The notes beneath the pieces were generated by a model that made no database searches, had not been told where the DNA came from, and saw only the letters and a list, made by a program, of their open reading frames with translations. Positions 3,259 to 37,646 of a stretch of DNA of 64,000 bases are shown piece after piece; the first letter of the stretch is position 1; each line of letters begins with the position of its first letter. The position numbers were made by a program, and so were the translations under genes. Source of the stretch: Leptospiraceae bacterium (lineage in GTDB: Bacteria; Spirochaetota; Leptospiria; Leptospirales; Leptospiraceae); NCBI GenBank assembly GCA_016708435.1, contig JADJFV010000035.1, positions 64,001 to 128,000 of the forward strand, given 5' to 3'.

Positions 3259-3392
3259 AAATTTTACCCCGTTTAGTTCATTACACCTTATTATGAAAGA
3301 AACGAAAGTCCGATTTTGCTTTATGCTTTAGTTTTGTGGGATAGAAGGAAATAGAATTATCGAGAAGTTGGATGCAGATTACTAGAAAGAAA
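3259..3392 (+). repeat. 135-bp dispersed direct repeat, copy B
   Basis: It aligns with 1275-1412 over its full length. Confidence 0.8.
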
Positions 3393-4035: not shown

Positions 4036-4158
4036 AAAATTTTACCCCGTTTCGTTCAAAGCAACTCTTTATGAATAAGGAGCAATCCGATTTTGCGTTA
4101 AGCTTTTAATTTGTGGGATAGAATTATAGGAGAAGTTGGATGCAAATTGCTAGAACAA
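4036..4158 (+). repeat. 135-bp dispersed direct repeat, copy C
   Basis: It aligns with copies A and B. The middle is divergent but both ends are conserved. Confidence 0.75.
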
Positions 4159-4419: not shown

Positions 4420-6042
4420 TTAGGATTGAGTAAGATTTTGTGAATTTTTCTTCAATACATCTATCTGATCATGGAGAGCGGTAACTGAAAGAGAAAGATT
4501 TTCCGTAGAATGATTGATAGTCTCCATGGCTTTGTGAATTTCTTTGTTTCCATTTTTCTGCTCGGAAGCAATTTGACCTATTTGCTCCGAAAGAGTATAC
4601 AAATGATCGAAAGTTTCTTTCAGTTTAAGATTTACTTTTTTCTCAATGTCCACTTGCTCTTCCAATTCTCTGACATCTTTTTCAATTCGTCCAAGATCTG
4701 AATTTTGTTTTTCAACTTTGCTCCTGACTTCAACAGATAATAAATTGCCTTTTTCCATTTGAGCGGAAGATTCTTTTACGATTAAGTCAATTTCTCTGGC
4801 ATTTGTGGATGATTTTTCTGCCAATTTCCCTACTTCCTGAGCGACCACGGCAAATCCTTTTCCATTTTCACCGGCTCTTGCTGCTTCAATGGAAGCGTTG
4901 AGAGAAAGAAGACTGGTCTGGCGAGCAATTTCAGACATCATCTGGTTGATTTTAGTTACTCTCATAAATGATTCTTTTAATTCTACTAGTAATGAATTGA
5001 GTCTATCAGTAGAAATTTTTACTTCCATGCTGTATTTAGAACTGGTTTTAACATCTTTCGCAATCTGATCTGTTTTGCTTTTGACTGTGTTACTGATTTC
5101 ACTCAATTCATCAAAGTCCTGATCTACAATTTTAACTCTTTTGATTTGCTCCTCTACTAATTGAGCAGAGCTTTCAGAAGAGGCGGAGAGTTCTTCTATA
5201 GATGCTGAAATTTCTTCTACCGAGGCAGCTTGATTTTGGGATTGATTGCTCAATGTTCCAGACATTGTTTGAAGATTTGATATTGTATGGACAAGCTGAT
5301 TTGCAGATTCGGACATTCGTTTGGATTGTATTTGAATCATCTGCTGAGCCGAGACGGATAAGTCTAATTCATTTTTCAACTCTCTTTGCATTGAATTCAT
5401 AAGCGAGACTATAATGCTCAAGCAAAAAAGAATTGCCATTAAGAATAGAACTTTTTGGATTTCATTGGATATAACGATACTATTTGCCCATAGCATACCG
5501 GGATAAGAAGCCATTGTTGTCTTCGAGCCAAGAGATATGCTAAAAAAAAGGGAACCAACATATAGGATAATAACACCAAATCCGATGAACAGAAGGGATT
5601 TAGGTTTGAACAGGAATGAGGAATATATAATTATAAAAATAAATACAACATAATAGCTACTAGCATTAATTGCAATGCTCGCATCTCTCGAACTATAATT
5701 GTATATATCTATATAATAAACAAGACCAAGTAACAACAAATCTATAATCAGAATATTGTTCATCCACGAATCCGATATTTCTTTGCCTTGCTTTCGATAT
5801 ACGGAAGGAATAAATCCATTTAGAAAATAAATCAGAGTTCCCGCTAGATTGAAGAAAAAACTGACAGTTCCCCACTCGATCAAAGAGGAAATAAGCAAAA
5901 TGATACTCAAACCGTATTTTGTTTTTATCAGTAAAGAAACTCCTCGGTTAAGTTTTTGAGTATCTAAATTAGTCGATTGGTTAGCTTGCATGCAGATTTT
6001 CCTCCACCCGGTTTGCCAAATACAGCGATGCGATTCAAACAA
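4420..6042 (-). CDS. Methyl-accepting chemotaxis protein
   Basis: It has N-terminal TM segments and a C-terminal MA signalling domain ([37 protein letters not shown]). The start may be an internal Met near 5991. Confidence 0.8.
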
Positions 6043-6126
6043 TTACCCTCTTTAAAAAATTTAAATTCTAATACTTCAAGATAAATTAATAAGAACTATT
6101 GTGAGTCATTCATTTTTACAAATGAA

Positions 6127-6160
6127 AATTTTTACTCCGTTTAGTTTAAAACATCTCTCT
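6127..6160 (+). repeat. Partial copy D of the 135-bp repeat (5' ~35 bp only)
   Basis: AAATTTTTACTCCGTTTAGTTTAAAACA matches the 5' end of copies A-C. Confidence 0.5.
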
Positions 6161-6402
6161 TTAGCAACGAAAAAGCCTGTTGGCATCTCTGTCAATTATG
6201 AAGGCAGGGAAGAGCCAGGGGAGCAGTTATTCACGAATCCATTTAGGAGTCCCGCGGTCAGTAACGTCTGCCATTTCTCATTTCCATCATTAGGATGTTG
6301 CCAACCAACTATTTTGCAATTGCAAAGGGCGGCAATGAGTAAAATACCTTTCAAAAACCAAGTCATCGCTATCTTCTTCGAAATTCTCATCTAAATTATA
6401 CA

Positions 6403-6436
6403 TCTACACCACAAAAAAACTGCGAGGTGTTATATC
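6403..6436 (+). repeat. Junction repeat R1 (ACACCACAAAAAAACTGCGAGGTGT), copy 1
   Basis: The same 25-mer recurs at 7240-7262 and 8272-8296. Confidence 0.6.
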
Positions 6437-6578
6437 CCCAATGGCACCGACTGTGATGGTATCAGAGGAAATAGATACAGATGTTCCAAAATTATCATTT
6501 GCCTTTGCTTTGGCTCGTGTAAAAACAAAAAAAGTATTTCCTCTTGACAAAGAGCCAATTTCAAACAAAGTAAGGAGC

Positions 6579-7178
6579 ATGGACAACTTAGCGCGTAAAC
6601 TTTTCACCGAAGAAGAATACTTAGAAATAGAAAGACAGGCAACCGATAAAAGTGAATATTACAAGGGAGAAATCTTCGCTATGGCAGGAGCGAAGCGAAA
6701 GCACAATCTCTTAGTCACAAATCTATGCAGGGAGATCAGTTCCATCCTCAAGAACAATCCCTGCGAAGTCTATCCTTCTAATATGAGAGTAAAAAACAAG
6801 ACAGATAGATTTTATACCTATCCCGATGTAACCATCGTTTGTGGAAAGCCGGAATTCTTGGATGACGACGAAGATGTCCTTACAAATCCAACTGTTATTA
6901 TAGAAGTTTTATCTACTTCTACCGAGAAATACGACAGGGGAGGAAAATTTGCTCTCTATCGAAATATACCTTCCGTTCAAGAATACATTTTGGTAGGCTC
7001 CGAAGAAAAGAAAATAGAGTCCTTCTTTCGCAAAGGAGATGAATGGATTTTTCGGGAATCTAAAAACGAATCTTCATATCACTTCCGCTTACAATCTTTG
7101 GATATAGAACTTTCCTTAGATGACATTTATGAAAAAGTAGAACTACCTCCCAAAAGATTGCGAGAGAATTTTTTATAG
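6579..7178 (+). CDS. Uma2-family (DUF820) putative restriction-endonuclease-like protein
   Basis: Motifs are [25 protein letters not shown] and [38 protein letters not shown]. The ORF track starts at 6441. An internal Met at 6579 gives the typical ~200 aa length. Confidence 0.65.
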
Positions 7179-7179
7179 T

Positions 7180-7262
7180 CAGGAACGCACATTGAAGAAG
7201 CTATCCTTTGCTCTCCGCCAATTTCGCGCATAATTCAAATACCCCACAAAAAAACTACGAAG
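7180..7262 (+). repeat. Junction repeat: a shared 55-bp segment (CAGGAACGCACATTGAAGAAGCTATCC...ATTTCGCGCATAA) plus an R1-like 25-mer
   Basis: The 55-bp segment recurs at 9129-9183, where it encodes the C-terminus of the PIN protein. Confidence 0.7.
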
Positions 7263-7332
7263 CTTTTTAAGCTGTCTCTACCCTCTTTTTTCTCTTTACA
7301 ATTTAGAATAAGTGGAATGAGATAGAGAAACG

Positions 7333-8223
7333 ATGATTGCGAACTTAGACAACGAAGTATTTTTCAAGAAAGCATTTACGGATACGTTTGTATTGAAGCA
7401 TTTTGTAAAAGATGTTTTGGAAATGGACTTGGACTTTGACAAAGTAGAAACCGAAAAATCTTTCGATCCAAGGATTGGGAATATTGATTTTAAATATGAT
7501 ATTTTTGCAGAGTCTACGGACAAGCGGGTAATCATCGAAATCCAGAAAGTGGATTACGATTACAACTTCGATCGGTTTCTGCATTATTTTTTAATGGCAA
7601 TCGCTGAGCTTCAACGCAGTTCCAAAGACTATGGCATTGAAAAAACTGTATACGCAGTTATATTTATCACAGCTCCCTACAAGATAAATCAAAAGACTGG
7701 AATCCCCATCAAAGATGAACTTTTGATTTCTAACTTGAATCCGAAGAACATCAAGGGCGATGAATTAAATATCTATGGTCATAGTCTGTTATTTTTAAAT
7801 CCGAATTACAAAAATGCTGAAATCCCAGCGCGTATCCGAGATTGGTTGGATTTAGTTTACGAGTCCATGCACAATCCCGAAAAACCGAGCATCAACCAAA
7901 ACAACGACGGAATCAAACGAGCTTCTGAAATTCTAGACTTTGAACATATATCTCCTTCTGAATGGGAACAAAGCAAAATCCGTGAAGGCAGAAAGAAAGT
8001 GCAGCTAATAGCAAAAGAAGAAGGCGTTGAAGAAGGGAAAATTATCGGTAGAGAAGAAGGAATTAACATTGGTGTTGAGAAAGAAAGAGAGCGTTCTGAA
8101 AAAGAAAAAGAGGATGCAATCAGAAAAGCAATTTCTAAACAAAAGCTTTCCTTAGAAGAAATAGCAGAGGTCTTTGGCGTATCAGTGGAATTTGTGCAGC
8201 ATTTGCCCAAGGGCGTGGATTAA
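7333..8223 (+). CDS. Rpn/YhgA-like PD-(D/E)XK nuclease family protein (putative transposase/invertase-type, TIGR01784-like)
   Basis: The N-terminus has FFKKAF...DIFAESTDKRVIIEIQK (D..E.K nuclease core). The C-terminal region is Glu/Lys-rich and coiled. Confidence 0.55.
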   Translation: MIANLDNEVFFKKAFTDTFVLKHFVKDVLEMDLDFDKVETEKSFDPRIGNIDFKYDIFAESTDKRVIIEIQKVDYDYNFDRFLHYFLMAIAELQRSSKDYGIEKTVYAVIFITAPYKINQKTGIPIKDELLISNLNPKNIKGDELNIYGHSLLFLNPNYKNAEIPARIRDWLDLVYESMHNPEKPSINQNNDGIKRASEILDFEHISPSEWEQSKIREGRKKVQLIAKEEGVEEGKIIGREEGINIGVEKERERSEKEKEDAIRKAISKQKLSLEEIAEVFGVSVEFVQHLPKGVD

Positions 8224-8310
8224 CCCACGCCCTTGGGCAAATACGAATAATTGGGCACGCCTAACACCAATACACCACAAAAAAACTGCGAGGTGTGATA
8301 CTCGCAGTTT
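8202..8310 (+). repeat. Junction: a perfect 17-bp inverted repeat spanning the Rpn stop codon, followed by the R2 repeat (CCACGCCCTTGGG...GGGCACGCCTAACA) and then R1 with its own hairpin
   Basis: TTTGCCCAAGGGCGTGG (8202-8218) pairs with CCACGCCCTTGGGCAAA (8225-8241). R2 recurs at 9192-9235. AAACTGCGAG/CTCGCAGTTT forms a hairpin at 8283-8310. Confidence 0.7.
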
Positions 8311-8481
8311 AGAAAGTGATTGGTTATAGTGTGAAAGTTTATTGAATCTTTCGGATTTTGAGGTTGCAGTTATCAGAGAAATAGAGGCGCTGATGCCTTG
8401 CAAGTAAAGCGAACAAAGTGACAGTTGAAATTTTTAGAGACAAAAATCAGTTGATCTTTTCTAGATAGTCAATATTATACT

Positions 8482-8691
8482 TTGATAGGAGAATGTATGA
8501 CAGAAATTACAGTCAAAGTTCCGAATAACTTATTGAGCATTGCACAGAAACTTGTTGCAGACGGCTGGTTCTTGGATGAAAATGAAATTTTTCTATTGGC
8601 ATTTAGAAATTATTTAAGGACTCATTCAGATGAAATTATCACATCTTTCATTAAGGAGGATATTGAATGGGGTCTGAATGGTAAAGAATGA
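8482..8691 (+). CDS. Small antitoxin-like protein (UPF0175-like partner of the downstream PIN gene)
   Basis: The 69-aa ORF overlaps the downstream PIN-like gene start by 14 bp. This is typical antitoxin-toxin architecture. Confidence 0.45.
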   Translation: MIGECMTEITVKVPNNLLSIAQKLVADGWFLDENEIFLLAFRNYLRTHSDEIITSFIKEDIEWGLNGKE

Positions 8692-9181
8692 ATGGATTGT
8701 CGTTTGTGATGCAGGTCCAATTATTCATTTAGATGAATTAAACTGTTTAGATATACTGGATTTCCAAAAGATCTTGGTTCCTATAACTGTTTGGGAAGAA
8801 ATATTACAATACAGGCGCATTCCTTTGGAAAAAATCAAAGGGCTTGAAATCATCGAAAGAACTGATTTTACTACAGAGTTTTTAGAAATATGTAAATTAT
8901 ATGACCTGCATAAAGGAGAGGCTGCCGCTATTTTCTTATCGCTAGAATTGAAGAACTCTATATTGTTTACGGATGATGGGGCTGCGCGGTTATATGCCAA
9001 AAGTAAAAATATTGCTGTTCACGGAACAATCGGGATTCTGCTTCGAGCAGTCAGAAAAAATATCCGAAGCCCAGACAATATTATAGAAATTCTAAAAAAT
9101 ATAAAAACAAATTCTACACTTCATATTTCAGGAACGCTCATTGAAGAAGCTATCCTTGCTATCCGACAAATTCGCGCATAA
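8678..9181 (+). CDS. PIN-like nucleic-acid-binding protein (COG2405/DUF3368 type), putative toxin
   Basis: The N-terminus VVCDAGPIIHLDELNCLDIL matches DUF3368 PIN-like proteins. The protein is 167 aa. Confidence 0.55.
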   Translation: MVKNEWIVVCDAGPIIHLDELNCLDILDFQKILVPITVWEEILQYRRIPLEKIKGLEIIERTDFTTEFLEICKLYDLHKGEAAAIFLSLELKNSILFTDDGAARLYAKSKNIAVHGTIGILLRAVRKNIRSPDNIIEILKNIKTNSTLHISGTLIEEAILAIRQIRA

Positions 9182-9240
9182 CACCATTACCCCACGCCCT
9201 TGGGAAAATCAGAATAAGTGGGCACGCCTAACATCAATAC
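9129..9240 (+). repeat. Junction: a copy of the 55-bp segment that overlaps the PIN CDS 3' end, plus an R2 copy
   Basis: Compare with 7180-7233 and 8225-8278. Confidence 0.7.
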
Positions 9241-9483
9241 ATACAGATTGACTTTTAATAGATAATTCCTTTAGCGAATGAAATCTAGGACAGGAGATTC
9301 CCCCCTATAAAACTCTACAAGCACACAAACAGCCCTCCCCCATTTTGGGATAATCTACAAAACCTATCAATATAGGACAAATATGAATTTGTTGTTTACG
9401 AATTTTAGTAGGATGAATTTCTTCTGAAGCACTGGAATGTGTTCACGGGAATAAGAGTTTTTGTCGTAGGTGAGATTATAAAA

Positions 9484-9523
9484 TCTTTATCCATAAAAAC
9501 GACCTATTTTTATGGATAAAGAT
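9484..9523 (-). terminator. Perfect 16-bp stem-loop (TCTTTATCCATAAAAA / TTTTTATGGATAAAGA), a likely bidirectional terminator downstream of the LamG gene
   Basis: The inverted repeat is visible directly. The stem is AT-rich and sits 20 bp past the stop of the minus-strand gene. Confidence 0.4.
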
Positions 9524-9543
9524 TGTAAGGTGTATAGAATTTC

Positions 9544-10682
9544 TTAGTTTGAATTGGCTCCAGAAGAAATCCAATTGGCATCAGTCATGTTTTGAAGTGT
9601 GCCATTGAAACTACCTTTTTCATCAATTAGGGTTGTTCCACTAGTTGAATCAAATTTATAATAAGCAATTAAATTTGATTCTCCGGTTGGATTGCTTAAA
9701 GGAGTGTTTCTATTATTTTGGATTTCTGCTTGTGTTCTTGCCACTTTCCAGATGCGTAGATCATCCATTTTTCCTTTATAGAAAAAACCGGAAGAGGTTG
9801 GTGGATTACTACCAGGTTGTGCACCTAAAGTAACAGGACCTAAAGTGGCACTAGTTGTAGTGTCTACAGTACCAGTAATCGCACCTGCAATAAGAGTTCC
9901 ATTTTTATATACTTTGAGTCTATCTGCAGCGGCTAGCGTACCATCAAAAACTACAGCTATATGCGTCCACGTGGAAAGTGTAATACTAGCTGCTCCAGTA
10001 CCCCTGTAACCAGGCTGTGTATTATTTTGAAAAACGTTCAGCCCCGTACCCGAAAGTTCAATGTCGATTTTTGGAATGTCGCTAGTTACTTTGGTACCCA
10101 AAATAGTTACTCCAGACTCAATCAATACCCACATTTCAATTGTATAAGCAGATGCACCTCTAAGATCTGGAATCGTTCCAATAGTAACATGTTGTTTTAA
10201 AGCAACAGCACCAAACTCAAGGGCATTTCCAAACCCAAGTGTTACACATGCAATAGATATGTTAGTCACATTCGCAGTTGCCGTCCCTGTTCCACTTGAA
10301 ACCGTGCAGGTTAATCCAGTTGGTTGCGTTTTCACTGTCACAGCATAAGCCGCTGTTTTCGTTGCAAACGTGAACGTTGTCGCACCACTGGCTACAGTCA
10401 AATCGTCTCCTGCATTGTTCTGAAGCACAAGCCCAGTTGCAGTAAGTCCTGTGATTGTTCCACCGATTGCATAAGTTGCTGCCGCTCCAGTTCCAGTTCT
10501 GTAGCTGTAGCCGTCGCCACTGTTCCACTTCCTCTAGAAGCGAGTGCCGCCGCTGCGAATAGAGGTGTTTTATCATCCTCTTTTTTATTACAATTTATAA
10601 ACGTCAAAGTAGTTGCTAGGGCAATTACTGTGAGGCATTCTATCCATAGACTAAGTTCTTTTTTATTGGTTTTATTTTCCAT
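9544..10682 (-). pseudogene. LamG/concanavalin-A-like lectin-domain lipoprotein, apparently frameshifted
   Basis: The N-terminal ORF (10398-10682) has a signal peptide and a lipobox (TFINC). The body ORF (9544-10428) is Gly/Thr-rich LamG-like (DDLRIWKVARTQAEI). The two frames differ. The in-frame stop of the body frame is at 10534-10536. A GCTACA x2 tandem lies at the junction. Confidence 0.5.
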
Positions 10683-10808
10683 TTAGTTCTCCTAAATTTG
10701 TTTGAATCTTCTTAGTTTTCAGCCTACTCGCGACTCAGTCTCTAAAGGCAACCGGTTTGAACTTGGAAATTTGGTAGAAGAGCAGTTTTTTTGTTAAAAA
10801 TCTGTAGA

Positions 10809-10830
10809 AATTTAGGACTAGTCCTAAATT
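10809..10830. promoter_or_regulatory. 22-bp perfect palindrome AATTTAGGACTAGTCCTAAATT, ~140 bp upstream of the AAA-ATPase_like gene
   Basis: It is a perfect inverted repeat. A second copy lies at 15483-15506 in the divergent promoter region of the response regulator. Confidence 0.5.
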
Positions 10831-10968
10831 TTAGCATATTGCAATGTTTGATATTTTGGAAATAAATTTCATTTTTGTGAAAAAGGAAGATTTTGCCACC
10901 AATTAAGCCGATGAACACCGATTTTCTTTTAGCTTTACAAAAGGATAAAATCTTTCAAATCTGTAATT

Positions 10969-12758: not shown

Positions 12759-14816
12759 ATGAAACAAATCAAAAATAAAGAATATCGTAAAAAAAAGAAT
12801 GTTATGGAAATCACGATTAGCCGCATTCTACAAACGGCAACGCTACTATTCTTTATTCTAGCCAGTATTGTATTTCAAGCCTGCACTAGCGAAAAAAAGA
12901 TTTTTCCAAAAGCAGAGAAAGGTATTCTTGATTTGCGATCTGCATCCATTGATTCCGAAATAAGTTTAGATGGAGAATGGGAATTTTATCTCTTTACGTT
13001 TATTGATCCAACAAATCCAAACTTAAACCCAGAAAAACAATTCATCCAAGTCCCTGGAATTTGGAATCAGGCAATGAAACAGGGAAAGGGTTATGCAAGT
13101 TATAGACTCCAAGTCTTGTTACCCGATACAAATTCTATTCCTCTCGCTTTTAAGGTTATGGAGAACGGGACTGCCTATAAAATGTTTGTCAACGGAATAG
13201 AAGTAGCGGCTAACGGGCAAATAGGAAAGACAAAGGAAGAAAATATCGCAGAGCATTTGCCACTTGTTGTCCCACTAAAAAACTATTCCCCAAAAATAGA
13301 AATTGTATTTCATGTGTCAAATTTTCATTATACGGATGGAGGACTTTGGTATTCAATTCAGTTGGGAGAGGATTCCAAAATCAGAAAAGCAAAAGAAAAC
13401 AAAATGCTTCTCACATTGTTTTTATGTGGAAGCATTTCAATCATGGCAATTTATCATATTGCCGTTTATCTTTTTAGAAGAAAGGATAAGTCTGCTTTAG
13501 CTTTTAGTCTTTTTTGTATCGCGATAGATTTTAGGCTTCTTGGATTCAATGAAAAGTTTTTGAATCAAATTTTTGTGGGAGATTATTTTCTAATTCTAAA
13601 TCGGATTGAATACCTGGCTTATTATTTGGCGATTCCGTTCTTTGCTAGCTTTCAGCAAATTATTTTTCCAAATGAATTTAGAAAAATATTCTTACATTTT
13701 TTTTTGATTATCTCTTCTTTATTTTCTTTAGTGGTTCTTTTGTTTGATAGTTTTATTTATACACATACAGCCTTTTACTATCATATCTATGTTCTTTTTT
13801 TTATGGGCTATTCAACGTTTGTAATGATAAAAGCAGTAACCAATAATAGAGATGGATCTAAAATTTTTACCTTTGGAATGTTTCTTCTTTTTGCTGTAAC
13901 AATAAATGATATTCTTCATTCTAAGACAATTATTCAAACAGAATTTATGGCTCCCTATGGAATGTTTGGATTTATTTTTATTCAATCCATAATGCTTTCG
14001 ATGAGATTCTCAAAGGGATTTAACATGGCAGAAAAATTAAGTCACGAACTTATACTACTCAATGCAAGTCTTGAAGATAAAATTTTAGAGCGAACAAAAG
14101 AATTAACCAAAAAAAAAGAAATAGCAGAAGAAGCAAGTCTCATCAAAGATAAATTTGTTTCGATTGTATCGCATGACTTGCGATCTCCGCTCTTAGGTGT
14201 ATCGAATATACTTGAAATCATTGACAAAAAAGAAATCGTTACAACCGAAGAAGAAAGAAAACAATTTTTAGAAATGTCTCGCGAGAGTATTAAATTTTCT
14301 TTGAAAATGATAAATGAATTATTAAACTTAAGTCGTATTGAAACCGGCAAAATCAAAGTTAAAAAACAGAATATTTCCGTGCAAGAAATGACTAAATTAT
14401 TTCTAAAAGAATTGGAACCGCAAGCTAAATTAAAAAATATTACAATCAAAACCGAAATTCCATCTCTCCTTTCTATCTATATTGATTTGGAGTTATTTCC
14501 TCAAGTCTTAAAAAATTTGATTACCAATGCAATTAAGTTTACTGAGCCGGAAGGAAATATTTTGATCCGAGGAATCGCGAGCGAAAAAGAATCAATCATT
14601 GAAATTCATGATAACGGCGTTGGGATGAGCGCCGATGAACTCAATCAAATCTTTGAGCCCGGTGCCAAAAAGACAAGGCTTGGAACTTCTGGTGAAATTG
14701 GAAGTGGAATGGGATTATTTATTTGTAAATACATTGTAGATGCACACGGTGGAAAAATCCAATTCATAAGCGAAGAAGGGGTTGGAACAATTTGTAAAAT
14801 TATTTTACCGATATAG
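12759..14816 (+). CDS. Sensor histidine kinase with a 7TMR-DISM extracellular domain, 7TM region, HisKA and HATPase_c
   Basis: It has a signal/TM segment, an extracellular ~180 aa domain (WEFYLF...HYTDGGLW), then 7 TM helices. H-box is SIVSHDLRSPL. G-boxes are HDNGVGM and GSGMGL. Confidence 0.8.
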   Translation: MKQIKNKEYRKKKNVMEITISRILQTATLLFFILASIVFQACTSEKKIFPKAEKGILDLRSASIDSEISLDGEWEFYLFTFIDPTNPNLNPEKQFIQVPGIWNQAMKQGKGYASYRLQVLLPDTNSIPLAFKVMENGTAYKMFVNGIEVAANGQIGKTKEENIAEHLPLVVPLKNYSPKIEIVFHVSNFHYTDGGLWYSIQLGEDSKIRKAKENKMLLTLFLCGSISIMAIYHIAVYLFRRKDKSALAFSLFCIAIDFRLLGFNEKFLNQIFVGDYFLILNRIEYLAYYLAIPFFASFQQIIFPNEFRKIFLHFFLIISSLFSLVVLLFDSFIYTHTAFYYHIYVLFFMGYSTFVMIKAVTNNRDGSKIFTFGMFLLFAVTINDILHSKTIIQTEFMAPYGMFGFIFIQSIMLSMRFSKGFNMAEKLSHELILLNASLEDKILERTKELTKKKEIAEEASLIKDKFVSIVSHDLRSPLLGVSNILEIIDKKEIVTTEEERKQFLEMSRESIKFSLKMINELLNLSRIETGKIKVKKQNISVQEMTKLFLKELEPQAKLKNITIKTEIPSLLSIYIDLELFPQVLKNLITNAIKFTEPEGNILIRGIASEKESIIEIHDNGVGMSADELNQIFEPGAKKTRLGTSGEIGSGMGLFICKYIVDAHGGKIQFISEEGVGTICKIILPI

Positions 14817-15506: not shown

Positions 15507-15717
15507 TAAACAAATTGTGCGAAAAAATTTAATTCTTGTTAAGGATAGGTAAGGCATTTATAGTTATGAGCTTTTCGGCTTTCGGATTGAAATTAGCAAA
15601 ACTGAAATAAAAGCTAGGAATAGCGTAGATAGAAAAAGAATTACTTGAAATTATTGGGATAGCTTTTATTATTTCCGGCATTCATGAAAAGGTAGCTTGA
15701 GCGCGAGGAGCAAAAAA

Positions 15718-18129
15718 ATGAAACGGGAAACCTTAGATAAAAAAATACCGACCTTATTTATCGTAATCTTTTTTACATTTTGCAATCTAGGGAACCATAA
15801 TACAAAAGAAGAAAATGAATCCTTGTTCACAAATTTGGGATTACTGTTTAGCAGAGCCAATCGACTTACTGTATCAGGCTCTGCAGTAAAAGGAATTGTT
15901 AAAAATGGAAAAGTGTCAATTAGCACCGTAGAAAAAGATGGAAGTTGTAATTCCTCTCAGAGTCTTGCCACTGGAACTACAGACATAACTGGACTCTATT
16001 CTATTTATTATAACAAAGTAGGGGGAATGATTTGTATTACTATTTCCGGCGATCAAAATACTACCATGTATGATGAGAAATCTGGAAAAGACTTACCGGT
16101 TCCATCTACTTCTGATTTTAAACTGGTTTCTATTCTTCCTGAAAGTAAATTTTCTAGTAATTCAAAAAAGAACGCTCTCATCTCTCCCTTTTCAAAATTA
16201 TTATCCAAAAGAATGGAAACCTTAATTAAGCAGGCAGGAGAAGGGGCAGATGTATCGGCACTTTACAAAAAGGCAAGCAAAGAAGTAGTCATCCGATTCG
16301 GTTTAAGTTCTGGTCTTTCAAGTGCTTCGCAAAAAAACAAACGACTTCTAGAAATCAGACCCAGTATTTTAGATTCAGATTATCCAGAATTGGATGATCT
16401 TGTAATAGAACTAGACAACCCGAATAGCCCTATCTCTGCTAAATATCTTTCTGTGCTGGCAGGTTTTTCACAACTGGCAAATTCTTACAAAAAAGAAACG
16501 GAAGTTAAAGTAACAGATGTAGATTCAGTAATAAACGCATTTGCTTCTGATTTTGAGGATGGAGTTTTTGACGGAAAAAATGGTTCGGGCAGTACAGTTA
16601 CATTGGGGGCTGGTCAAAGGCAACTAACGTTTTCTTCCAATCCTCTTACTACTATTTTGCTACCCGCGATTTCCACTTATCTGCAAGAAGGAGGAAATTT
16701 GAGCGTAGGTGTGCCAGGAACAGCAACATCTACAATCACGATAACTCAATTCACAAATCAAACTCAGTTTAATGACAATAGCCCAATCATATCTACTACA
16801 ACAACTACTACACCTACCACCACGCCAACCCCTACGCCTGTGGTAACTCCGATAACTCTCAGCATAACAGCATTTAGTTTTACGGATACTGTAAACGGTT
16901 TAAGCAAAACCTATAACGGCATAATAACTGGAAGCAATATTACAATCGATATACCCTATGGAAAGCTTACGTCCGCGATTCCTTCTATTACTACAAATGC
17001 TACTACCATCATGGCTCCTTCTGCTGTAACAAGCGGAGTAACTTTGTTAGACTTTACAAACCCTGTCACACTTACTCTAAGTGCTGCCAATGCGGCTAAT
17101 GTAGTGTATACCGTTACAGCGTATCCGATAACGCCTGTAGCAGATACAGGTCAGACGATTTGTTTTAACAATGCAACCCCTCAAGGATCTTGCGCTACTA
17201 CAACGGCCACCTTCCCAAATCAGGATGGAGAACTTTTAAATTTTCCAAATGCAAAAGGAACACAAGCTATTTCGACTAACCCCGGTTACCCAAATGATCA
17301 AATCAATCAAGATACTTTAAAAGGTATCGTTTGGAAAACATGCCACGAAGGTCAAACAGGACCAACTTGTGCTGGAGGAACAGCTTCTACCAATAATCAT
17401 GCATCAGCTACTACGCTATGTGGTAATTTGAATTCAGCAAATTCTGGAGCAGGCTATGCTGGATTAAAAAATTGGAGATTGCCGAATGTTTATGAATTGA
17501 ACCAATTATTGGAACTTAACGGTAGCACGACGAATAACAACTATTGGAATGCAACTTTTTTCCCAAATGCACCAGCAGGAGGTTTAAGCAGATGGACTTC
17601 TTCATTAATATTGCCAGCGGCTACTAGTGCTATGACCCAAACTACTGAATACATTCAAAACCAGGCTACTTCCACTCCCAATTATGTTCAATGCGTGAGT
17701 GGACCCGCTTCTCCCGCTTTTGATATGGTTGATAATGGAGATGGAACAATTTTTGATAAAAGAACTAAATTGATTTGGCAAAGATGTGCTTTTGGACAAA
17801 CTAATGATGCTACCTGTTCAGGTGCTCTCGCAACTAAAACCTGGACTAATTCATTGTTAGATTGTAAGAATTTAACTTTAGCAGGAAAGTCTTGGAGACT
17901 TCCCAATGCGAATGAATTTTTGACTCTAGTGGATTTGTCTATTACCACTGTTCCAAAAGTGAATCCTACTCTTTTTCCTAATTTTGGTGTTGCAAATTAT
18001 GAGACTAGTTCAACCAATCAAAATAATCTTGCCTATTCCCATATTTTTGATACCAATGCTACTGGCTTTTATGGATGGTCAGGGAAAGGAAGTGTTTACA
18101 ATTCCCGTTGCGTGGCTGGTCCTGAATAA
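15718..18129 (+). CDS. Large lipoprotein with an N-terminal conserved module, a Thr/Pro linker, and C-terminal 2x DUF1566 (Lcl C-terminal-like) repeats
   Basis: The lipobox is FTFCN. The linker is TTTTTPTTTPTPTP. Two DUF1566-like repeats are NWRLPNVYELNQLLEL and SWRLPNANEFLTLVDL. The first ~350 aa are ~70% identical to ORF 35091-37646. Confidence 0.7.
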   Translation: MKRETLDKKIPTLFIVIFFTFCNLGNHNTKEENESLFTNLGLLFSRANRLTVSGSAVKGIVKNGKVSISTVEKDGSCNSSQSLATGTTDITGLYSIYYNKVGGMICITISGDQNTTMYDEKSGKDLPVPSTSDFKLVSILPESKFSSNSKKNALISPFSKLLSKRMETLIKQAGEGADVSALYKKASKEVVIRFGLSSGLSSASQKNKRLLEIRPSILDSDYPELDDLVIELDNPNSPISAKYLSVLAGFSQLANSYKKETEVKVTDVDSVINAFASDFEDGVFDGKNGSGSTVTLGAGQRQLTFSSNPLTTILLPAISTYLQEGGNLSVGVPGTATSTITITQFTNQTQFNDNSPIISTTTTTTPTTTPTPTPVVTPITLSITAFSFTDTVNGLSKTYNGIITGSNITIDIPYGKLTSAIPSITTNATTIMAPSAVTSGVTLLDFTNPVTLTLSAANAANVVYTVTAYPITPVADTGQTICFNNATPQGSCATTTATFPNQDGELLNFPNAKGTQAISTNPGYPNDQINQDTLKGIVWKTCHEGQTGPTCAGGTASTNNHASATTLCGNLNSANSGAGYAGLKNWRLPNVYELNQLLELNGSTTNNNYWNATFFPNAPAGGLSRWTSSLILPAATSAMTQTTEYIQNQATSTPNYVQCVSGPASPAFDMVDNGDGTIFDKRTKLIWQRCAFGQTNDATCSGALATKTWTNSLLDCKNLTLAGKSWRLPNANEFLTLVDLSITTVPKVNPTLFPNFGVANYETSSTNQNNLAYSHIFDTNATGFYGWSGKGSVYNSRCVAGPE

Positions 18130-21612: not shown

Positions 21613-22494
21613 TTAAAGTATAACTGCGTTTTTTGCAGTCATTAATTTTTTTTGAATTACGATTCCTGGATTGCCGAGTGCTTTTTTAAATTGCTTCTCT
21701 GAAAAGTTCGCAACGATTTCATAGCATTGCTTATAGAAGGCTTCCTGGTCGTCTAGATATCCTTTCCATACCTCGCGAGTGAATTCATGAGTGAGAAATT
21801 GTTTTCGCTTACGAGAGGAGCTTTGTCCTTCTGGACTTAAGAAACTCAACTGGTCGGAAATTTCCATTGGTGTAAATTTTAATTGAAGCAAAGCTTCTTC
21901 CATGAGTGCCATCTCTACATAGGAAATATAATCCGACAACTGATCCCAGAATTCGAATCCTGCACTTCCATAATTACTCAGGCAGTGAAAACTTGTGCAT
22001 ACGGAGCTACGTGATTTCCAGATTCCACAATTATTTCTTTTGCGATCGTAATAAGGACAAAGCCAATCTTCTCTATTTCCAAACTCATTGTCTTTTCGTT
22101 TTGCAAATTTAATCTGGTGGGGCATGGGTGCGACAATTCCAATCGGTAATGCGTATTCTCTATTCTTAATCTTTGCTTTTATTCGCTCTAATACTTCTTT
22201 CGGTGTAGTAGGGGTTAATAGGATTTGTCCGATGAGATAGTTTGTTTGAAAAGGATGAAAGGTGCAACATTTTAAATGAGCTTGGTATTTTCTATGGTCT
22301 GGACTTTTTCCGTTACTGAGTGCACAGTTATCGCAAGTGGCTTTTGTTTCTTTTATCGCAAAATCAAGAATAGCCTCTGGAAATAGTTTATGATAGATAG
22401 AAGGAAGTATATTTCTAATCACTAGCCATTGCCTCAGCTGCAATCCAAGAAGTTGTCCATGCATTTTGGAAATTAAATCCGCCTGTGATCCCAT
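21613..22494 (-). CDS. Cys-rich protein, possibly YkgJ/UPF0153 family (CxxCxxCC Zn/Fe-chelating domain)
   Basis: The segment is ATCDNCALSNG...KCCTFHPF, with further Cys clusters (CPYY...CGIWK...CTSFHC). The start is uncertain and overlaps the upstream gene. Confidence 0.4.
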   Translation of the reverse strand: MGSQADLISKMHGQLLGLQLRQWLVIRNILPSIYHKLFPEAILDFAIKETKATCDNCALSNGKSPDHRKYQAHLKCCTFHPFQTNYLIGQILLTPTTPKEVLERIKAKIKNREYALPIGIVAPMPHQIKFAKRKDNEFGNREDWLCPYYDRKRNNCGIWKSRSSVCTSFHCLSNYGSAGFEFWDQLSDYISYVEMALMEEALLQLKFTPMEISDQLSFLSPEGQSSSRKRKQFLTHEFTREVWKGYLDDQEAFYKQCYEIVANFSEKQFKKALGNPGIVIQKKLMTAKNAVIL

Positions 22495-23644
22495 CTATAT
22501 CAATCACTTCACCGGCAAAATACATACCGGAAATAATTCTGCTTTCCATTGTTCTAAAATCGATTTCTTTTCTATTGACTCCACCGCAAGTAACGAACTC
22601 TTCTTTGAAAATGGATTTACCGTCTACTTCGTATATACTGCTACATATTTCTTCTCTCAGTCGATTTAATTCTGCATTGGAAATTTCAGACCATCTTTTC
22701 TCAAGAGAGATATTTGCATTTCTTAAAAAAGATTCCCAGAGCCTAGATGCCAATCCAAATTGGGAATTCGCTGAAATCTTTTTAGCGGGGGATTCCTGTT
22801 TAATGGCTGTTATCCGTGAAATGAATTCTTCTCCTGTCACTTGCCCTAACCAATTTACTTTTACTTTTGCTTTGTAATCACAGTCTGCAAAGCTTTTCGC
22901 TTCCCAGGCAGAGAGTCGTAAGACAGCAGGACCACTGAGTCCCCAGTGGGTAATTAGGATTGGTCCCTGTTGTGGTTTTCCTTTTGGTAGTAGGCGAATT
23001 TCTCCATTGGGAACAGAGAGCCCCGGTAGATCTTTGATTCTTGAATCAGGAATATGCAAAGTGAATAAGGAAGGGACTGGTTTTTCGATTGTATGACCGA
23101 GGGAATCGAGCCATCCCCATACTTTTCTGTTTGAGCCTGTGGCTACTAGCAATTTGTCGAAGGTTTGGTTTTGTTCCTTTGAATCGACGAGGCAAAATTT
23201 CTTTTCTTTCTTTGTGTTATCAACGTAGATTGCAGTGATTGGATTCTCTAGACGAATTTCTACTCCTGCCTCGATTGCCTCTCTTGTGAGACAGTCAATG
23301 ATTGTAGAAGAAGTATTGGTAACAGGAAACATTCTTCCGTCTGCTTCTGCTTTTAATTTAACACCATGAGTTTCAAACCATTGGACTGTATCTCTTGGTT
23401 GAAATCGTTCAAAGGCTGCTCTTAGTTCTTTAGAGCCTCGCGGATACTTCTCGGAAAGTGCAACAGGGTCGTATAAGTTGTGGGTAACATTGCATCTACC
23501 ACCACCGGAAATTTTTACCTTTGCAAGTGGCTCATTTCCTTTCTCTAATAAAACAATATTGGCCTTTCCCTTCATTTGCTTAGCTATTTGGATTGCACCA
23601 AAATATCCAGCAGCCCCACCCCCTAGGATTCCAATTTGTTTCAT
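22415..23644 (-). CDS. HI0933-like NAD(P)/FAD-dependent oxidoreductase (BaiN/RdsA family flavoprotein)
   Basis: The N-terminal Rossmann motif is IGILGGGAAGYFGA. GGGRCNVTH is also present. 409 aa. Confidence 0.8.
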   Translation of the reverse strand: MKQIGILGGGAAGYFGAIQIAKQMKGKANIVLLEKGNEPLAKVKISGGGRCNVTHNLYDPVALSEKYPRGSKELRAAFERFQPRDTVQWFETHGVKLKAEADGRMFPVTNTSSTIIDCLTREAIEAGVEIRLENPITAIYVDNTKKEKKFCLVDSKEQNQTFDKLLVATGSNRKVWGWLDSLGHTIEKPVPSLFTLHIPDSRIKDLPGLSVPNGEIRLLPKGKPQQGPILITHWGLSGPAVLRLSAWEAKSFADCDYKAKVKVNWLGQVTGEEFISRITAIKQESPAKKISANSQFGLASRLWESFLRNANISLEKRWSEISNAELNRLREEICSSIYEVDGKSIFKEEFVTCGGVNRKEIDFRTMESRIISGMYFAGEVIDIDGITGGFNFQNAWTTSWIAAEAMASD

Positions 23645-23698: not shown

Positions 23699-23891
23699 CA
23701 ATGCTGTCAACTTAAGAATTGTTTCTGTCATTTCGAACATCGCTTGGCGGTAGGATTTGCGGCTAAGCAAATGGGTGGATGTGAGAAATCTATATGGCAA
23801 TACAACGATAGTATTAAGCTAGATAGACCTCTCACGATGAAGCAGTTCGAGGTGACAGGAGAAAAGCACTTTCCTTAAGTTGACAGCATTG
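23699..23891. repeat. Palindromic MITE-like element copy 2 (23725-23858, reverse orientation), nested within an outer 18-bp inverted repeat, CAATGCTGTCAACTTAAG / CTTAAGTTGACAGCATTG
   Basis: The termini are CTGTCATTTCGAAC ... GTTCGAGGTGACAG. The outer inverted repeat is perfect. Confidence 0.7.
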
Positions 23892-32660: not shown

Positions 32661-32829
32661 CTGTCACCTCGAATAGCTTCACCATGAGAGGTCTATCTTG
32701 CTTACCCTCGCTGCGAAGTTATAAACGCCTTTGTATACTATCCTATCGTTTCATTGCCAGATAGATTTCTCACATCCAGCCATTTGCTTAGTAGCAAATA
32801 CAACCGCTAAGCGATGTTCGAAATGACTG
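32661..32829 (+). repeat. Palindromic MITE-like element copy 3
   Basis: The termini are CTGTCACCTCGAAT ... GTTCGAAATGACTG. The inner inverted pair is GAGAGGTCTATCT / AGATAGATTTCTCAC. Confidence 0.75.
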
Positions 32830-34828: not shown

Positions 34829-35090
34829 CCGATTTCTTTCCATTTTAACTAGGTGCTCTGAGTGAGTGCCTGGTTAAATGCCGGACAATTCGCAGTATTC
34901 GCCTATAGGTATATCTCCATGGAGAGTTACGCCGGACAAGAATTTGAATACTTTTCCAATTTTAGAATCTTAAGGAGGTCGATAGCCTGAATTTAAACTA
35001 CTAAAAAAAGAATTTGCTTGAAATTATTAGGATAACATTTACAATTCTCCGCATTAATGAAAATGAGTTTAGAGAGCAGGGAATAAAAAA

Positions 35091-37646
35091 ATGAAATGGA
35101 AATCCTTAGATAAAAACTTACTACTACTATTAATCATATCTTTGCTACCACTTTGTAAACAAGGAACCGCGAATACTAAAGAAGACAAAGAATCCTTATT
35201 CACAAATTTTGGCTTACTCTTTAATAGATCCAATCGACTTACTGTTTCAGGCTCTGCAGTCAAAGGAATTATTAAAAACGGAAAAGTGTCAATCAACACT
35301 TTAGGAAAGGATGGGACATGTAATTCTTCTCGGAATATTGTAACTGGAACTACAGATATAACCGGATTCTACTCAATTACTTATGACAAAACAGGTGGAA
35401 TGATTTGTGTTACCGTATCGGGGGAACAAAATACAACAATGTATGATGAGAAAACAGCAAAAGATTTATCTATTCCCTCTACTTCTAATTTTAAGTTAGT
35501 ATCCATTCTGCCTGAAAGTAAATTTTCTAGTAACACAAAAAAAAATACTCTCCTATCTCCCTTTTCAAAATTATTATCCAAAAGAATGGAATCCTTAATT
35601 AAACAGTCAGGAGAAGGAGGAGATGTATCCGCACTTTACAGAAAGGCAAGTAAAGAAGTAGTCATTCGATTTGGTTTAAGTTCTGGTCTTTCAACTGCTT
35701 CTCAAAAAAGCAAATCGACTTTAGAAATAAATCCAAGCATCTCTGATTCAGACTATCCAGAATTGGATGATTTGGCAATTGAGCTAGACAACCCAAATAG
35801 CCCTATCTCTGCCAAAGCTTTTTCTGTGCTAGCTGGTTTTTCCCAACTTGCAAATTCTTACAAAAAAGGAACAGATGTTGATATATCCGATATAGATGCA
35901 ATGATAGAAGCCTTTGCTTCTGATTTTGAAGATGGAGTTTTTGACGGGAAAAATAGTTCGGGAAACACAATTACAGTGGGGTCTGGCCAAAGGCAACTAA
36001 CGTTCTCTTCCACTCCGCTCACTACCATTTTACTACCTGCCATTTCCACTTATCTACAAGAGGGAGGAAAATTAAATGTAGGTGTACCAGGAACGCCAAC
36101 GTCTACCATCACGGTAACTCAATTTACAAATCAAACCCAATTTAATGATAATACTCCAATCCTATCTACGACAACTACTCCAACCAATACAACTCCTGTA
36201 ACGACCACACCGACGCAAAATACCATTCCACCAAAAGTCCTTTCGCTAACGCCTACAAATAATTCTACAAATGTTTTAATTGGAACTCCTATTACCATTG
36301 TCTTTGATAAGCCAATGGACATTACAACACTTACGATGATTTCTATGGATGGCACTTGCGCGGGCAATATCCAATTATCCACAAATAATTTTACAACTTG
36401 CATGGGTGGAACGGTTTCTCTCTCTGCTGATCAACTAACAGTGAGTATAACTCCTAAAACTTCCCCCTGTGTTGAATCTACTTATACTTTGCAGTTTAAA
36501 GTATCAACTGGTGTTAAGGATACTACGGGTAATCCGCTTACCTCTGAGTTTTTAAATACAACTACATTTCAAACGCAACAGGCATTTGTTAGAGTAGGCA
36601 TATCCGGCGGTTCAAATATTGTAAATGCATTGGCCGTATCTTGTAATACTTTGTTTGTAGGTGGAAATTTTACAACGGTTGGTAGTTCTACGCGAAATAA
36701 TATTGCTGCTATTAATTTAGCAACAGGTCTTGAGACTCCAATTAATATGGGGACGAATAACACTGTTAATGCATTGCTCGTAAACGCAGGAATTGTTTAT
36801 TTGGGTGGAATATTTACAAATGCAGGTGGTCAAGGTCGAAACAATGTTGCGGCTATCGATCCACTTACGGGAACGGCTACTCCCTGGAATCCGAATGGGA
36901 GTGGTCAAGTAATGTCTTTAGTTTATAACGGAGCAACGGTTTATGCAGGAGGAGCATTTACTACGATAGGGGGACAGGCTCGAAATCGAATTGCTGAATT
37001 AGACCTTGCTAACGGTAATGCAACTGCTTGGAATCCTAATGCTAGCCTTGGAACAATCAATGCGATAGCGTATGATGCAACTAACGTTTACCTTGGTGGA
37101 AATTTTACATCGGCAAATATTGGCGGGCAAACCTATACTCATCTCGCTGCTGTATCTCGAACTACCGGAGCAGGAGTTGCAGGCTGGTGTCCAACAACGA
37201 CTACTTTTCCTGTAAGCGCATTGGTATTAACTGGTGGAGTTCTATTTGCAGGGGGAACTTTTGGTGGAAATCTTTGCTCACTCACTATCTATAATTTTGG
37301 TGGACTTAATCCAGCAAATGCGGCTAGTAGTGGTTATCCGTCAGGAGGAGGGACAGGGGCAGGTGCTGGGGTCAATGCACTTGCAGTGAGTGGGAATAAT
37401 TTATATGTAGGTGGAGCCTTCAATGGGGCTGGTGCCTTTTTTAATCAGGTTAGAAATTATTTGGGATCGACTACTACTGCTGGGGTTCTTAATTCTTGGG
37501 ATCCGAATGCGAACAATACTGTGAACGCAATCACAACCGTAGGCTCAGCCGTAATTATAGGAGGGACTTTTACTACGATTAATGGAGGCACGGCTGTGAA
37601 TAGACTTACAATCGTTGATGCAAATACTGGACTCATTAGACCTTAG
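35091..37646 (+). CDS. Large lipoprotein paralog with the same N-terminal module and Thr/Pro linker as 15718-18129, but C-terminal Ig-like plus ~55-aa beta-propeller-type (delta-60-like) repeats
   Basis: The lipobox is LPLC. The repeats are LFVGGNFTTVGSSTRNNIAAINLATG, VYLGGIFTNAGGQGRNNVAAIDPLTG, VYAGGAFTTIGGQARNRIAELDLANG, and so on. Confidence 0.7.
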   Translation: MKWKSLDKNLLLLLIISLLPLCKQGTANTKEDKESLFTNFGLLFNRSNRLTVSGSAVKGIIKNGKVSINTLGKDGTCNSSRNIVTGTTDITGFYSITYDKTGGMICVTVSGEQNTTMYDEKTAKDLSIPSTSNFKLVSILPESKFSSNTKKNTLLSPFSKLLSKRMESLIKQSGEGGDVSALYRKASKEVVIRFGLSSGLSTASQKSKSTLEINPSISDSDYPELDDLAIELDNPNSPISAKAFSVLAGFSQLANSYKKGTDVDISDIDAMIEAFASDFEDGVFDGKNSSGNTITVGSGQRQLTFSSTPLTTILLPAISTYLQEGGKLNVGVPGTPTSTITVTQFTNQTQFNDNTPILSTTTTPTNTTPVTTTPTQNTIPPKVLSLTPTNNSTNVLIGTPITIVFDKPMDITTLTMISMDGTCAGNIQLSTNNFTTCMGGTVSLSADQLTVSITPKTSPCVESTYTLQFKVSTGVKDTTGNPLTSEFLNTTTFQTQQAFVRVGISGGSNIVNALAVSCNTLFVGGNFTTVGSSTRNNIAAINLATGLETPINMGTNNTVNALLVNAGIVYLGGIFTNAGGQGRNNVAAIDPLTGTATPWNPNGSGQVMSLVYNGATVYAGGAFTTIGGQARNRIAELDLANGNATAWNPNASLGTINAIAYDATNVYLGGNFTSANIGGQTYTHLAAVSRTTGAGVAGWCPTTTTFPVSALVLTGGVLFAGGTFGGNLCSLTIYNFGGLNPANAASSGYPSGGGTGAGAGVNALAVSGNNLYVGGAFNGAGAFFNQVRNYLGSTTTAGVLNSWDPNANNTVNAITTVGSAVIIGGTFTTINGGTAVNRLTIVDANTGLIRP

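Follow-up and report, generated by a model that had tools for sequence, protein, structure and literature searches.

What is a perfect inverted repeat doing across the stop codon of a nuclease gene, and how does one half of it come to lie behind a second gene nearby? The locus that raises this question lies in a 64,000-nt stretch of contig JADJFV010000035.1 (positions 64,001 to 128,000 of the forward strand) from the Leptospiraceae bacterium assembly GCA_016708435.1. This whole stretch is hereafter the window, and coordinates are those of the window unless another locus is named. The nuclease gene occupies 7333-8223 on the plus strand and encodes a PD-(D/E)XK protein of 296 aa, a distant relative of the Rpn/TIGR01784 family that is referred to here as Rpn-like. 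The palindrome spans 8201-8242, and the half copy lies within 9186-9241, behind a PIN-like gene. The reading developed here has three parts: the palindrome would be an inverted duplication of the gene end, the half copy a deletion scar, and the hairpin a 3' barrier or stabiliser of the RNA. Judged from the sequences compared, this reading as a whole has an even chance of being right.

The two arms, 8201-8218 (ATTTGCCCAAGGGCGTGG) and 8225-8242 (CCACGCCCTTGGGCAAAT), are given on the plus strand and pair perfectly at 18 of 18 positions. They enclose a 6-nt loop, ATTAAC (8219-8224, plus strand), within which lies the TAA stop codon (8221-8223) of the Rpn-like open reading frame (ORF). An earlier description made from the letters alone, hereafter the sequence-only reading, reported a perfect 17-bp stem at 8202-8241 with the stop in a 6-nt loop; the sequence, the perfection and the placing of the stop hold, and the length does not, as an outermost A-T pair lengthens the stem to 18 bp. 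The left arm is coding and consists of the last six codons, TTG CCC AAG GGC GTG GAT (LPKGVD), together with the final two bases of the CAT (His) codon ahead of them. The right arm is non-coding, being the first 18 nt past the loop, and is followed by a plus-strand tail (ACGAATAATT, 8243-8252), in which a further TAA (8248-8250) occurs in the reading frame of the ORF. G-C pairs make up 11 of the 18, against a GC content of 36.3% for the window. As isolated RNA the hairpin folds at -36.5 kcal/mol (z = -8.6, with 0 of 200 shuffles equally good), and as isolated DNA at -23.6 kcal/mol. When the 64-kb window was simulated 60 times under a first-order Markov model, the longest perfect stem (loop of 3-10 nt) measured 8-13 bp, which puts the palindrome well outside chance expectation. 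Among 48 gene-end hairpins in the window it ranks strongest, the next lying at -22.0 and the median at -7.4 kcal/mol; hairpins lacking a U-tract also end other genes there. At up to 3 mismatches the arm has 3 matching places in the window, with 0.02 expected, and the window holds one full copy and one half copy. The palindrome is no assembly artefact, because it is present in independent assemblies (NCBI, ENA, JGI and Logan). The contig records stem from metagenomes of wastewater type, the ERZ2216xxxx and Ga0558xxx series among them.

The full copies belong to one gene lineage. A comparison set of 40 related loci (designated by L numbers) was drawn from protein-guided and pattern-guided searches, and within it all full copies sit at the coding end of this Rpn-like lineage, one full copy per gene, with the loop ATTAAC unchanged across all those examined; the palindrome is thus no dispersed element. 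The window allele recurs, identical, in L005, L010, L016 and L025-L031. Further full copies are found in L001 (protein 97% identical to the window allele), in copy 1 of L002 (93%), in L032-L034 (protein tail HFPKGVD), and in a diverged paralogue with an internal deletion, represented by copy 3 of L002 and by L006, to which L008 is identical. Copy 2 of L002 (L009 identical) is a decayed gene remnant in which ~35 nt of the gene end are left together with a full palindrome. Close alleles of the window gene (cluster P0241-P0264) sort into three C-terminal tail classes (HLPKGVD, K[KQ]LSE and VLAIQKE), and the palindrome accompanies the HLPKGVD tail. A degenerate 27-nt pattern, run against representative genomes of 185,579 species, was found on 1 contig, from a metagenome-assembled genome (MAG) already in the comparison set, and gave 5 matches among 241 million metagenome records; the pattern demanded AAATNNGAATAA, and diverged copies may have escaped it. 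BLAST of 7240-8320 against plasmid and phage collections returned nothing similar. Three short contigs bearing the window allele (L027, L029 and L031) end independently 8-14 nt into the right arm, which suggests that assemblies branch there, with a downstream context that varies by strain.

The palindrome is the terminal part of a 3' module of ~50 nt (8201-8250) that has been inherited and exchanged with one Rpn-like lineage. The homology shared by the three L002 copies stops at the tail 8243-8252, at its in-frame second TAA. Compared with the diverged paralogue (L002 copy 3, L006), identity is 64% in the upstream coding DNA and 96-98% across the palindrome and the next 8 nt (Fisher p ~0). Compared with the sister allele of L003, the upstream DNA is 77% identical and the palindrome stretch, at 32%, is unrelated.

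It is the sister alleles that point to the origin of the palindrome. In the close allele P0251 (tail QLSE) the TAG stop runs directly into a GCGCATAA...CCCAC remnant and then into the terminator hairpin, giving a 33-nt gap relative to the window in the MAFFT alignment. L003 (tail KLSE) has ...TATCTGAATAGTC in common with P0251 and then forms a perfect 13-bp palindrome, the right arm of which mirrors the stretch shared with P0251, TAG stop included; a second perfect palindrome, of 17 bp, comes after it. Because two sister alleles have built palindromes on their own ends and a third, P0251, has none, the best reading is that an inverted duplication of the terminal codons, specific to this lineage, gave rise to the palindrome. 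A local template switch or fold-back that copied the gene's own terminal nucleotides in inverted orientation would yield such a structure. In bacteria, template switching has been documented both to generate and to correct perfect inverted repeats (PMC5941160). The present case resembles template-switch inverted repeats (PMC5941160, PMC7202029, PMC8604942) in being a perfect palindrome with a short spacer, in having variants arranged star-like around the perfect form, and in having sister alleles either without a palindrome or with a different one on their own terminal sequence. It differs in that the event here is deduced from three allele types.

The half copy (9186-9241, plus strand) comprises the right arm (9192-9209, one mismatch), the tail and a gene-end remnant, with no left arm. 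The stretch 8219-8274 is 89% identical to 9186-9241, the arm segment 9192-9208 carrying the one mismatch, in agreement with the earlier remark that the right arm recurs at 9192 without its partner. The half copy has no fold of its own (RNA z = 0.1, no better than shuffled). Ahead of it lies the PIN-like/DUF3368 gene (8678-9181, plus strand; Pfam DUF3368, PADLOC PDC-S70), the protein of which is 100% identical to P0121, an entry listed in 166 blocks of the collection. In 10 of 10 strain variants fetched, the PIN stop is followed by ...CACCATTACCCCAC joined to AAAAAAACTGCGAGG with no right arm; nine of these empty junctions are spelled identically and L016 has a variant spelling. A junction of ...CCCCAC joined to GCCCTTGGG was seen only in the window and in L007, where the order is the PIN end, a 31-nt remainder (right arm and tail), a second PIN-end-like remnant and the terminator hairpin.

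A layout from which this junction could have been produced is present in the window itself. A remnant of the 3' end of a PIN-like gene (7179-7247, plus strand, 87% identical to 9128-9195) ends in CCCCAC just before the Rpn-like unit, and the unit in turn ends in ...GGATTAACCCAC joined to GCCCTTGGG, after which a PIN-end-like stretch follows (8253-8278, plus strand, GGGCACGCCTAACACCAATACACCAC). Its similarity to the PIN-like gene's 3' end and flanking bases (CGCGCATAACACCATTACCCCAC at 9173-9195) makes it a probable leftover of a gene end. The Rpn-like gene and the left arm stand between two CCCAC repeats, 7243-7247 and 8224-8228, and a deletion from one repeat to the other would remove both gene and arm and leave exactly the junction form of the half copy. 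Since ten strains have the empty PIN junction and the window holds the predicted precursor layout, the half copy is best read as the remnant of a full, Rpn-linked copy deleted behind the PIN-gene end. The sequence-only reading had proposed that the hairpin arose from the half site, which is probably backwards. Homology of the window to strain L010 ends at 9195 and restarts at 10262, within the lipoprotein gene, so that the block 9196-10261 was brought in from a site at which an Rpn-like gene and a lipoprotein gene stood face to face, the arrangement found in L001 and L002. A mobile element of 35 nt with a 15-nt duplication was also considered behind the right-arm repeat and was rejected, as its tail is a remnant of the PIN-gene end and its head is found solely as the mirror image of the final coding bases of the Rpn-like gene.

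Within the transcript, the stem-loop would form once ribosomes clear the last codons and would serve as a 3' barrier without a U-tract, hindering 3'-to-5' exonucleases and perhaps also read-through. It would thereby shield the 3' portion of the nuclease mRNA and insulate the downstream antitoxin-PIN operon, with actual termination falling to the conventional hairpin at 8283-8310. Because the stem needs ribosome-free last codons and has no U-tract, exonuclease protection with a partial block of read-through is expected rather than efficient termination. The function is probably that of such a barrier or stabiliser, and it could be nil; a stabilising hairpin had been the fallback of the sequence-only reading and is the option that the evidence favours. 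The palindrome is like other U-tract-less stem-loops at gene ends in having a very stable, G+C-rich stem right at the 3' end of its gene, on that gene's sense strand. It is unlike them in that the stem begins in the coding region and holds the stop in its loop, and in being perfect and far longer and stronger than the others here. A recoding role is impossible: by the time a ribosome reaches the TAA it has opened up the left arm, and read-through or recoding brought about by the palindrome was rejected on this ground.

The palindrome is not an attC site, a dif site, a repetitive extragenic palindromic (REP) element or the end of an insertion sequence (IS), since the defining features tested for each are absent. 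As regards a canonical intrinsic terminator, the G+C-rich stem with a loop of 3-8 nt is present (18 pairs, 11 G-C, 6-nt loop), and no U-rich tract comes after it: the downstream sequence is UACGAAUAAUUGG (ACGAATAATTGG), and a scan needing 5 T in 8 was silent, which bears out the earlier view that this is no canonical terminator. No tyrosine or serine recombinase was found among the 45 ORFs of at least 120 aa scanned; ORFs 10324-10686, 14042-14449, 22485-22877, 63134-63559 and 63522-63911 were left out, the first three of which overlap longer scanned ORFs. The sole transposase-type match among the scanned ORFs is an IS91-like Y2_Tnp at 288-1160. The stem base, ATTT/AAAT, shows neither the R'' (RYYYAAC) nor the R' (GTTRRRY) box of attC, and the only AAC/GTT in the palindrome is that of the loop (GATTAAC/GTTAATC), one position off both consensus strings. 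An attC site has an imperfect stem with extrahelical bases and a length of ~57-141 nt; the palindrome has a perfect 18-bp stem and measures 42 nt in total. There is no Phage_integrase match among the ORFs scanned, and instead of repeated sites in one orientation the 64 kb hold one full and one half copy.

A dif site is single-copy, and L002 carries three copies in 8.2 kb, each linked to an Rpn-like gene. An ATAA...TTAT core, as in dif, is not apparent in the palindrome arms. With REP elements and bacterial interspersed mosaic elements (BIMEs) the palindrome shares a G+C-rich palindrome adjoining a stop codon; those elements occur in many copies at the ends of unrelated genes, whereas here one full copy is found in 64 kb, the palindrome always goes with a single gene lineage, and public genomes are nearly devoid of it. 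Many full copies at core gene ends had been named in advance as the mark of a REP element, and in the window, the representative genomes and the metagenome records alike the copies are few and all tied to this lineage. No matching hairpin of the kind seen in IS200/IS605 elements or miniature inverted-repeat transposable elements (MITEs) lies at the other end of the unit (7248-7332), and a Y1 transposase was likewise not found. The left boundary of homology is not fixed, falling at window position 7232 in L001 and 7284 in L002, and the only two-ended repeat of the unit is a 16-nt stretch in two copies (7300-7315 and 9206-9221). Fixed ends, a target duplication and a cognate transposase, as expected of an IS or transposon end, do not attend the palindrome. 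Rfam returned nothing for the whole window at gathering thresholds, and permissive E-values on 6000-9700 gave chance miRNA-type hairpins only. A site for site-specific recombination, whether attC-like, dif-like or another tyrosine-recombinase core with 9192 as its half site, was the first proposal of the sequence-only reading and is now highly unlikely. Its geometry, two inverted arms with a 6-nt spacer in an island of small cassettes, is all that speaks for it; the check suggested earlier, paired boxes around a 6-8 bp spacer, is passed trivially by any palindrome with a 6-nt loop and is hence uninformative. Besides the lack of a recombinase in the scanned ORFs and of attC features, and the three copies of L002 that preclude a unique dif, the cassette boundaries of the island use another repeat.

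Variation among the full copies bears most directly on whether pairing has been maintained. Seven variants were found, each 1-3 substitutions off the perfect form, which is that of the window and looks ancestral among them. Changes in the left arm are G->A (synonymous, TTG->TTA) and G->T (Leu->Phe), and those in the right arm are C->T, C->A, G->T and G->A; the dead remnant (L002 copy 2) has three adjacent changes in the inner stem. Every variant folds at -23 kcal/mol or better, and the inner 10-11 pairs are intact in all copies on intact genes. There is no positive sign of selection on pairing; a covariation test is powerless here, the copies being too similar. Several points count against an inverted duplication kept as an RNA barrier. 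In a six-copy alignment none of the 18 pairs changed on both sides, five pairs are only broken and one became G-U; L032 contributes two further uncompensated changes, and pair 8205/8238 has been struck three independent times. Uncompensated changes of this sort match what the neutral decay of a recent palindrome would be expected to look like. The missing U-tract tells against the barrier as well, and the high identity of the module between paralogues can be put down to recombination within the conserved stretch immediately upstream, without selection having acted on the hairpin. P0251, a close allele, has no hairpin at its gene end. A hairpin at the stop is likewise found in 0 of 4 more distant homologues (L021-L024), L021 having an ordinary terminator past its stop; a family-wide habit of stop-straddling hairpins was rejected on the same count. 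For the window palindrome, moreover, copying could have run either from gene tail to flank or from flank to gene tail.

The palindrome could accordingly be a neutral scar, a by-product of a template switch or fold-back at a recombination-prone cassette boundary, without function and in slow decay, and we treat this as a tentative possibility on the doubtful side. The seven uncompensated variants, the thrice-hit outer pair and the hairpin-free P0251 all fit it, as does the capacity of template switching to make and correct perfect inverted repeats (PMC5941160), and the unrelated palindrome at the same place in L003 suggests a mutational bias. It fits less well that the inner pairs remain whole on intact genes and that only the dead remnant has three inner changes, although this could also stem from coding constraint on the left arm; that all variants still fold strongly; and that independent hairpins at the same gene end in two alleles would also be expected under selection. 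A break or recombination hotspot at the DNA level is unlikely. Here a hairpin or cruciform would be cleaved by host hairpin nucleases or by the Rpn-like nuclease, giving rise to gene conversion between paralogues and to the rearrangement behind the half copy. The half-copy junction does lie at the boundary of loop and right arm, the identity of the paralogues falls with distance (98%, then 77.5% in the adjacent 40 nt and 60% beyond), and the contigs L027, L029 and L031 end inside the right arm; in addition, E. coli Rpn proteins are described as endonucleases that raise RecA-independent recombination (PMC5350276), and rpn genes, whose ends vary, carry no terminal repeats (PMC10400941). The junction, the identity peak and the known activity of the E. 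coli proteins can each be accounted for more simply. The sole junction at the palindrome, however, coincides with CCCAC microhomology and is explicable without cleavage. Other breakpoints lie 8 nt downstream or ~35 nt upstream with no fixed crossover point, the insertion or deletion seen at the population level is bounded by the 30-bp junction motif described below, and the identity gradient equally fits a conserved C-terminal coding segment.

Taken further, the palindromes would be footprints of breaks, made by the Rpn-like or a host hairpin nuclease and healed by fold-back, and would form a self-renewing hotspot for RecA-independent exchange of the 3' module and of defence cassettes. We think this quite unlikely, though it is compatible with the observations because two sister alleles have palindromes, the half-copy junction lies at the loop and identity peaks at the palindrome. 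Were it true, it would supply a mechanistic link between Rpn-type nucleases and the shuffling of defence islands. Very improbable, lastly, is an operator for a DNA-binding protein, for example the helix-turn-helix (HTH)-like C-terminal domain of the nuclease or a putative internal antitoxin. The 50-nt module is conserved in sequence, loop and tail included, and not merely in pairing, and RpnS domains have been described as HTH-related (PMC10400941). The site nevertheless stands at the 3' end, ~870 nt from the promoter region of the gene and ~210 nt upstream of the promoter-like site 8451-8478; alleles of 288, 292 and 296 aa keep the same arms and 6-nt spacer, so that repeat number and site geometry do not co-vary, and some alleles of the same domain type are without the site.

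Taken alone, an unusually perfect gene-end hairpin in an uncultured Leptospiraceae lineage carries little weight and is ordinary in kind. It does offer a worked case in which a striking palindrome with a half copy nearby need not be a recombinase site. It also illustrates cleanly, in nature and independently in two sister alleles, how coding sequence can be recruited into a perfect inverted repeat.

The gene that carries the palindrome matches Pfam PDDEXK_2 (PF12784) at E=1.4e-5 with 25.3 bits, under the cut-off of 27.4, and NCBIfam TIGR01784, titled 'Rpn family recombination-promoting nuclease/putative transposase', at E=3.2e-8 with 33.7 bits, under the cut-off of 52.1. Because both scores are under cut-off it is called only Rpn-like, a label that is fair but loose for a distant relative of the family. 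Its homologues number 1654 at E<=1e-10, PF12784 being present in most, and an identical protein in Leptospiraceae MAGs is annotated 'PD-(D/E)XK nuclease family transposase [Leptospiraceae bacterium]'. The close alleles encode 282, 284, 288, 289, 292, 296, 303 and 305 aa, with lengths stepping by four residues (EEGV/EEGK/IIGR/EEGI/NIGV-type, EEGx/IGxE units) in the region encoded at ~8020-8110. Four-residue-repeat variation in a C-terminal helix is an Rpn-family trait, and variation of this kind has been described in E. coli for the region of the RpnS antitoxin (PMC10400941). The likeness to E. coli rpn genes (PMC5350276, PMC10400941) extends to the PD-(D/E)XK nuclease, the HTH-like C-terminal region, the alleles in four-residue steps, the variable contexts, and the lack of terminal inverted repeats or target duplications. 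The E. coli proteins belong to PF04754, whereas the window protein reaches TIGR01784 and PF12784 only below their cut-offs. According to the 2023 Rpn study (PMC10400941) the ends of rpn genes are variable and lack terminal repeats, and the mode of movement of these non-autonomous genes is unresolved; the word 'hairpin' does not occur in its main text. The present locus agrees with that study and extends it, for one distant lineage, by a terminal palindrome linked to the gene. The frames past the TAA stops of the Rpn-like (8224-8250) and PIN-like (9182-9217) genes both run on to a second TAA and would read PTPLGKYE and HHYPTPLGKSE, respectively; that the frame is shared is probably a coincidence. 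Stop-codon read-through was rejected, the alleles of 303-305 aa being longer through extra four-residue repeats.

The Rpn-like unit (~7262-8252) lies within a strain-variable island of toxin-antitoxin and defence-type genes. Upstream is an Uma2 endonuclease gene (6441-7178), and downstream are a small ORF with the PIN-like/DUF3368 gene (8497-9181), a minus-strand LamG lipoprotein gene and an AAA-ATPase/PDDEXK_9 gene; PADLOC matches two neighbouring genes to candidate defence families. The remaining window is ordinary chromosome, including dnaG and rpoD. The boundaries within the island carry a junction motif, ACACCACAAAAAAACTGCGAGGTGTGATA followed by a 10-bp hairpin (8283-8310), at 8271-8310 on the plus strand, flanked by A7 and T3. 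This is the right copy of a 30-bp direct repeat, the left copy of which (6405-6434, plus strand) is 96.7% identical to 8271-8300. The hairpin, 40 nt past the palindrome, was called a terminator for the minus strand by the scan, folds as RNA at -16.0 kcal/mol and looks like a bidirectional terminator. In L011-L015 and L017-L019 a single copy of the 30-bp motif is present and window 6435-8270 is missing, so that a 1,866-bp segment with the Uma2 and Rpn-like genes is present or absent between strains, exactly between two motif copies. Because these bounds fall on 6405-6434 and 8271-8300, rearrangements of the island appear to run through the junction motif, not through the palindrome.

In its general form the junction motif is ACACCACAAAAAAACTGCGAGG, usually then a loop and CTCGCAGTTT, and its orientation is always the same. 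It is found in the window at 6405-6434, 7240-7261 and 8271-8310, in L010 at 1726, 2561, 3594, 4511 and 5771, and four to five times in L001 (1344, 1995, 2785, 5909 and 6940, at <=3 mismatches, one of them weak). The pieces between motifs measure ~0.8-1.3 kb (up to 3.1 kb in L001), with genes in both directions, which looks like cassette shuffling by way of a shared bidirectional terminator. The island resembles attC arrays, or chromosomal cassette arrays, in consisting of toxin-antitoxin and defence pieces of ~0.8-1.3 kb with an imperfect palindrome repeat in one orientation between them. It is unlike them in that the island's repeat is the junction motif and not the palindrome, neither of which has R''/R' boxes, extrahelical bases or attC length, in that its genes point both ways, and in that no integrase is found among the ORFs scanned.

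Traces of earlier neighbours are also seen in the island. Just beyond the terminator lies a 3'-end remnant (TTATTGAATCTTTCGGATTTTG) of a minus-strand NHL/Lcl-type lipoprotein gene (8320-8365; L002 6035-6077; L001 6990-7030), which shows that the Rpn-like gene and a gene of this type formerly stood face to face at this place, an arrangement retained in L001, L002 and L035. The LamG lipoprotein gene (9544-10682, minus strand) is apparently split, with the signal peptide in ORF 10398-10682 and LamG in ORF 9544-10428, in another frame; either a frameshift or a junction left by recombination could account for this. A perfect A+T-rich palindrome of 18 bp at 9482-9524 (AATCTTTATCCATAAAAA / TTTTTATGGATAAAGATT, 7-nt loop) follows ~20 nt downstream of the LamG gene and is probably its terminator. 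A perfect 24-nt palindrome, AAATTTAGGACTAGTCCTAAATTT, lies at 10808-10831, upstream of the AAA-ATPase/PDDEXK_9 gene, and is kept in L011-L019.

Other repeats are present elsewhere in the window. A MITE-like repeat of ~135-190 nt with terminal inverted repeats CTGTCACCTCGAAC...GTTCGAAATGACAG is found at 297-430, 23725-23859 (minus strand), 32661-32827 and 58430-58505 (minus strand), one copy overlapping the start of the Y2_Tnp ORF at 288-1160. A 130-nt sequence ending in ...GGAGAAGTTGGATGCAGATTACTAGAAAGAG is present as three direct copies, 75-88% identical, at 1276-1408, 3259-3390 and 4036-4155, and may represent a shared promoter and 5' region of small ORFs ahead of DUF5618-type genes. Finally, a direct repeat of 1.18 kb (15630-16806 and 35002-36179, 82% identical) lies in two large lipoprotein genes of the Lcl_C and Big_5 types, where the two copies are paralogous N-terminal regions.

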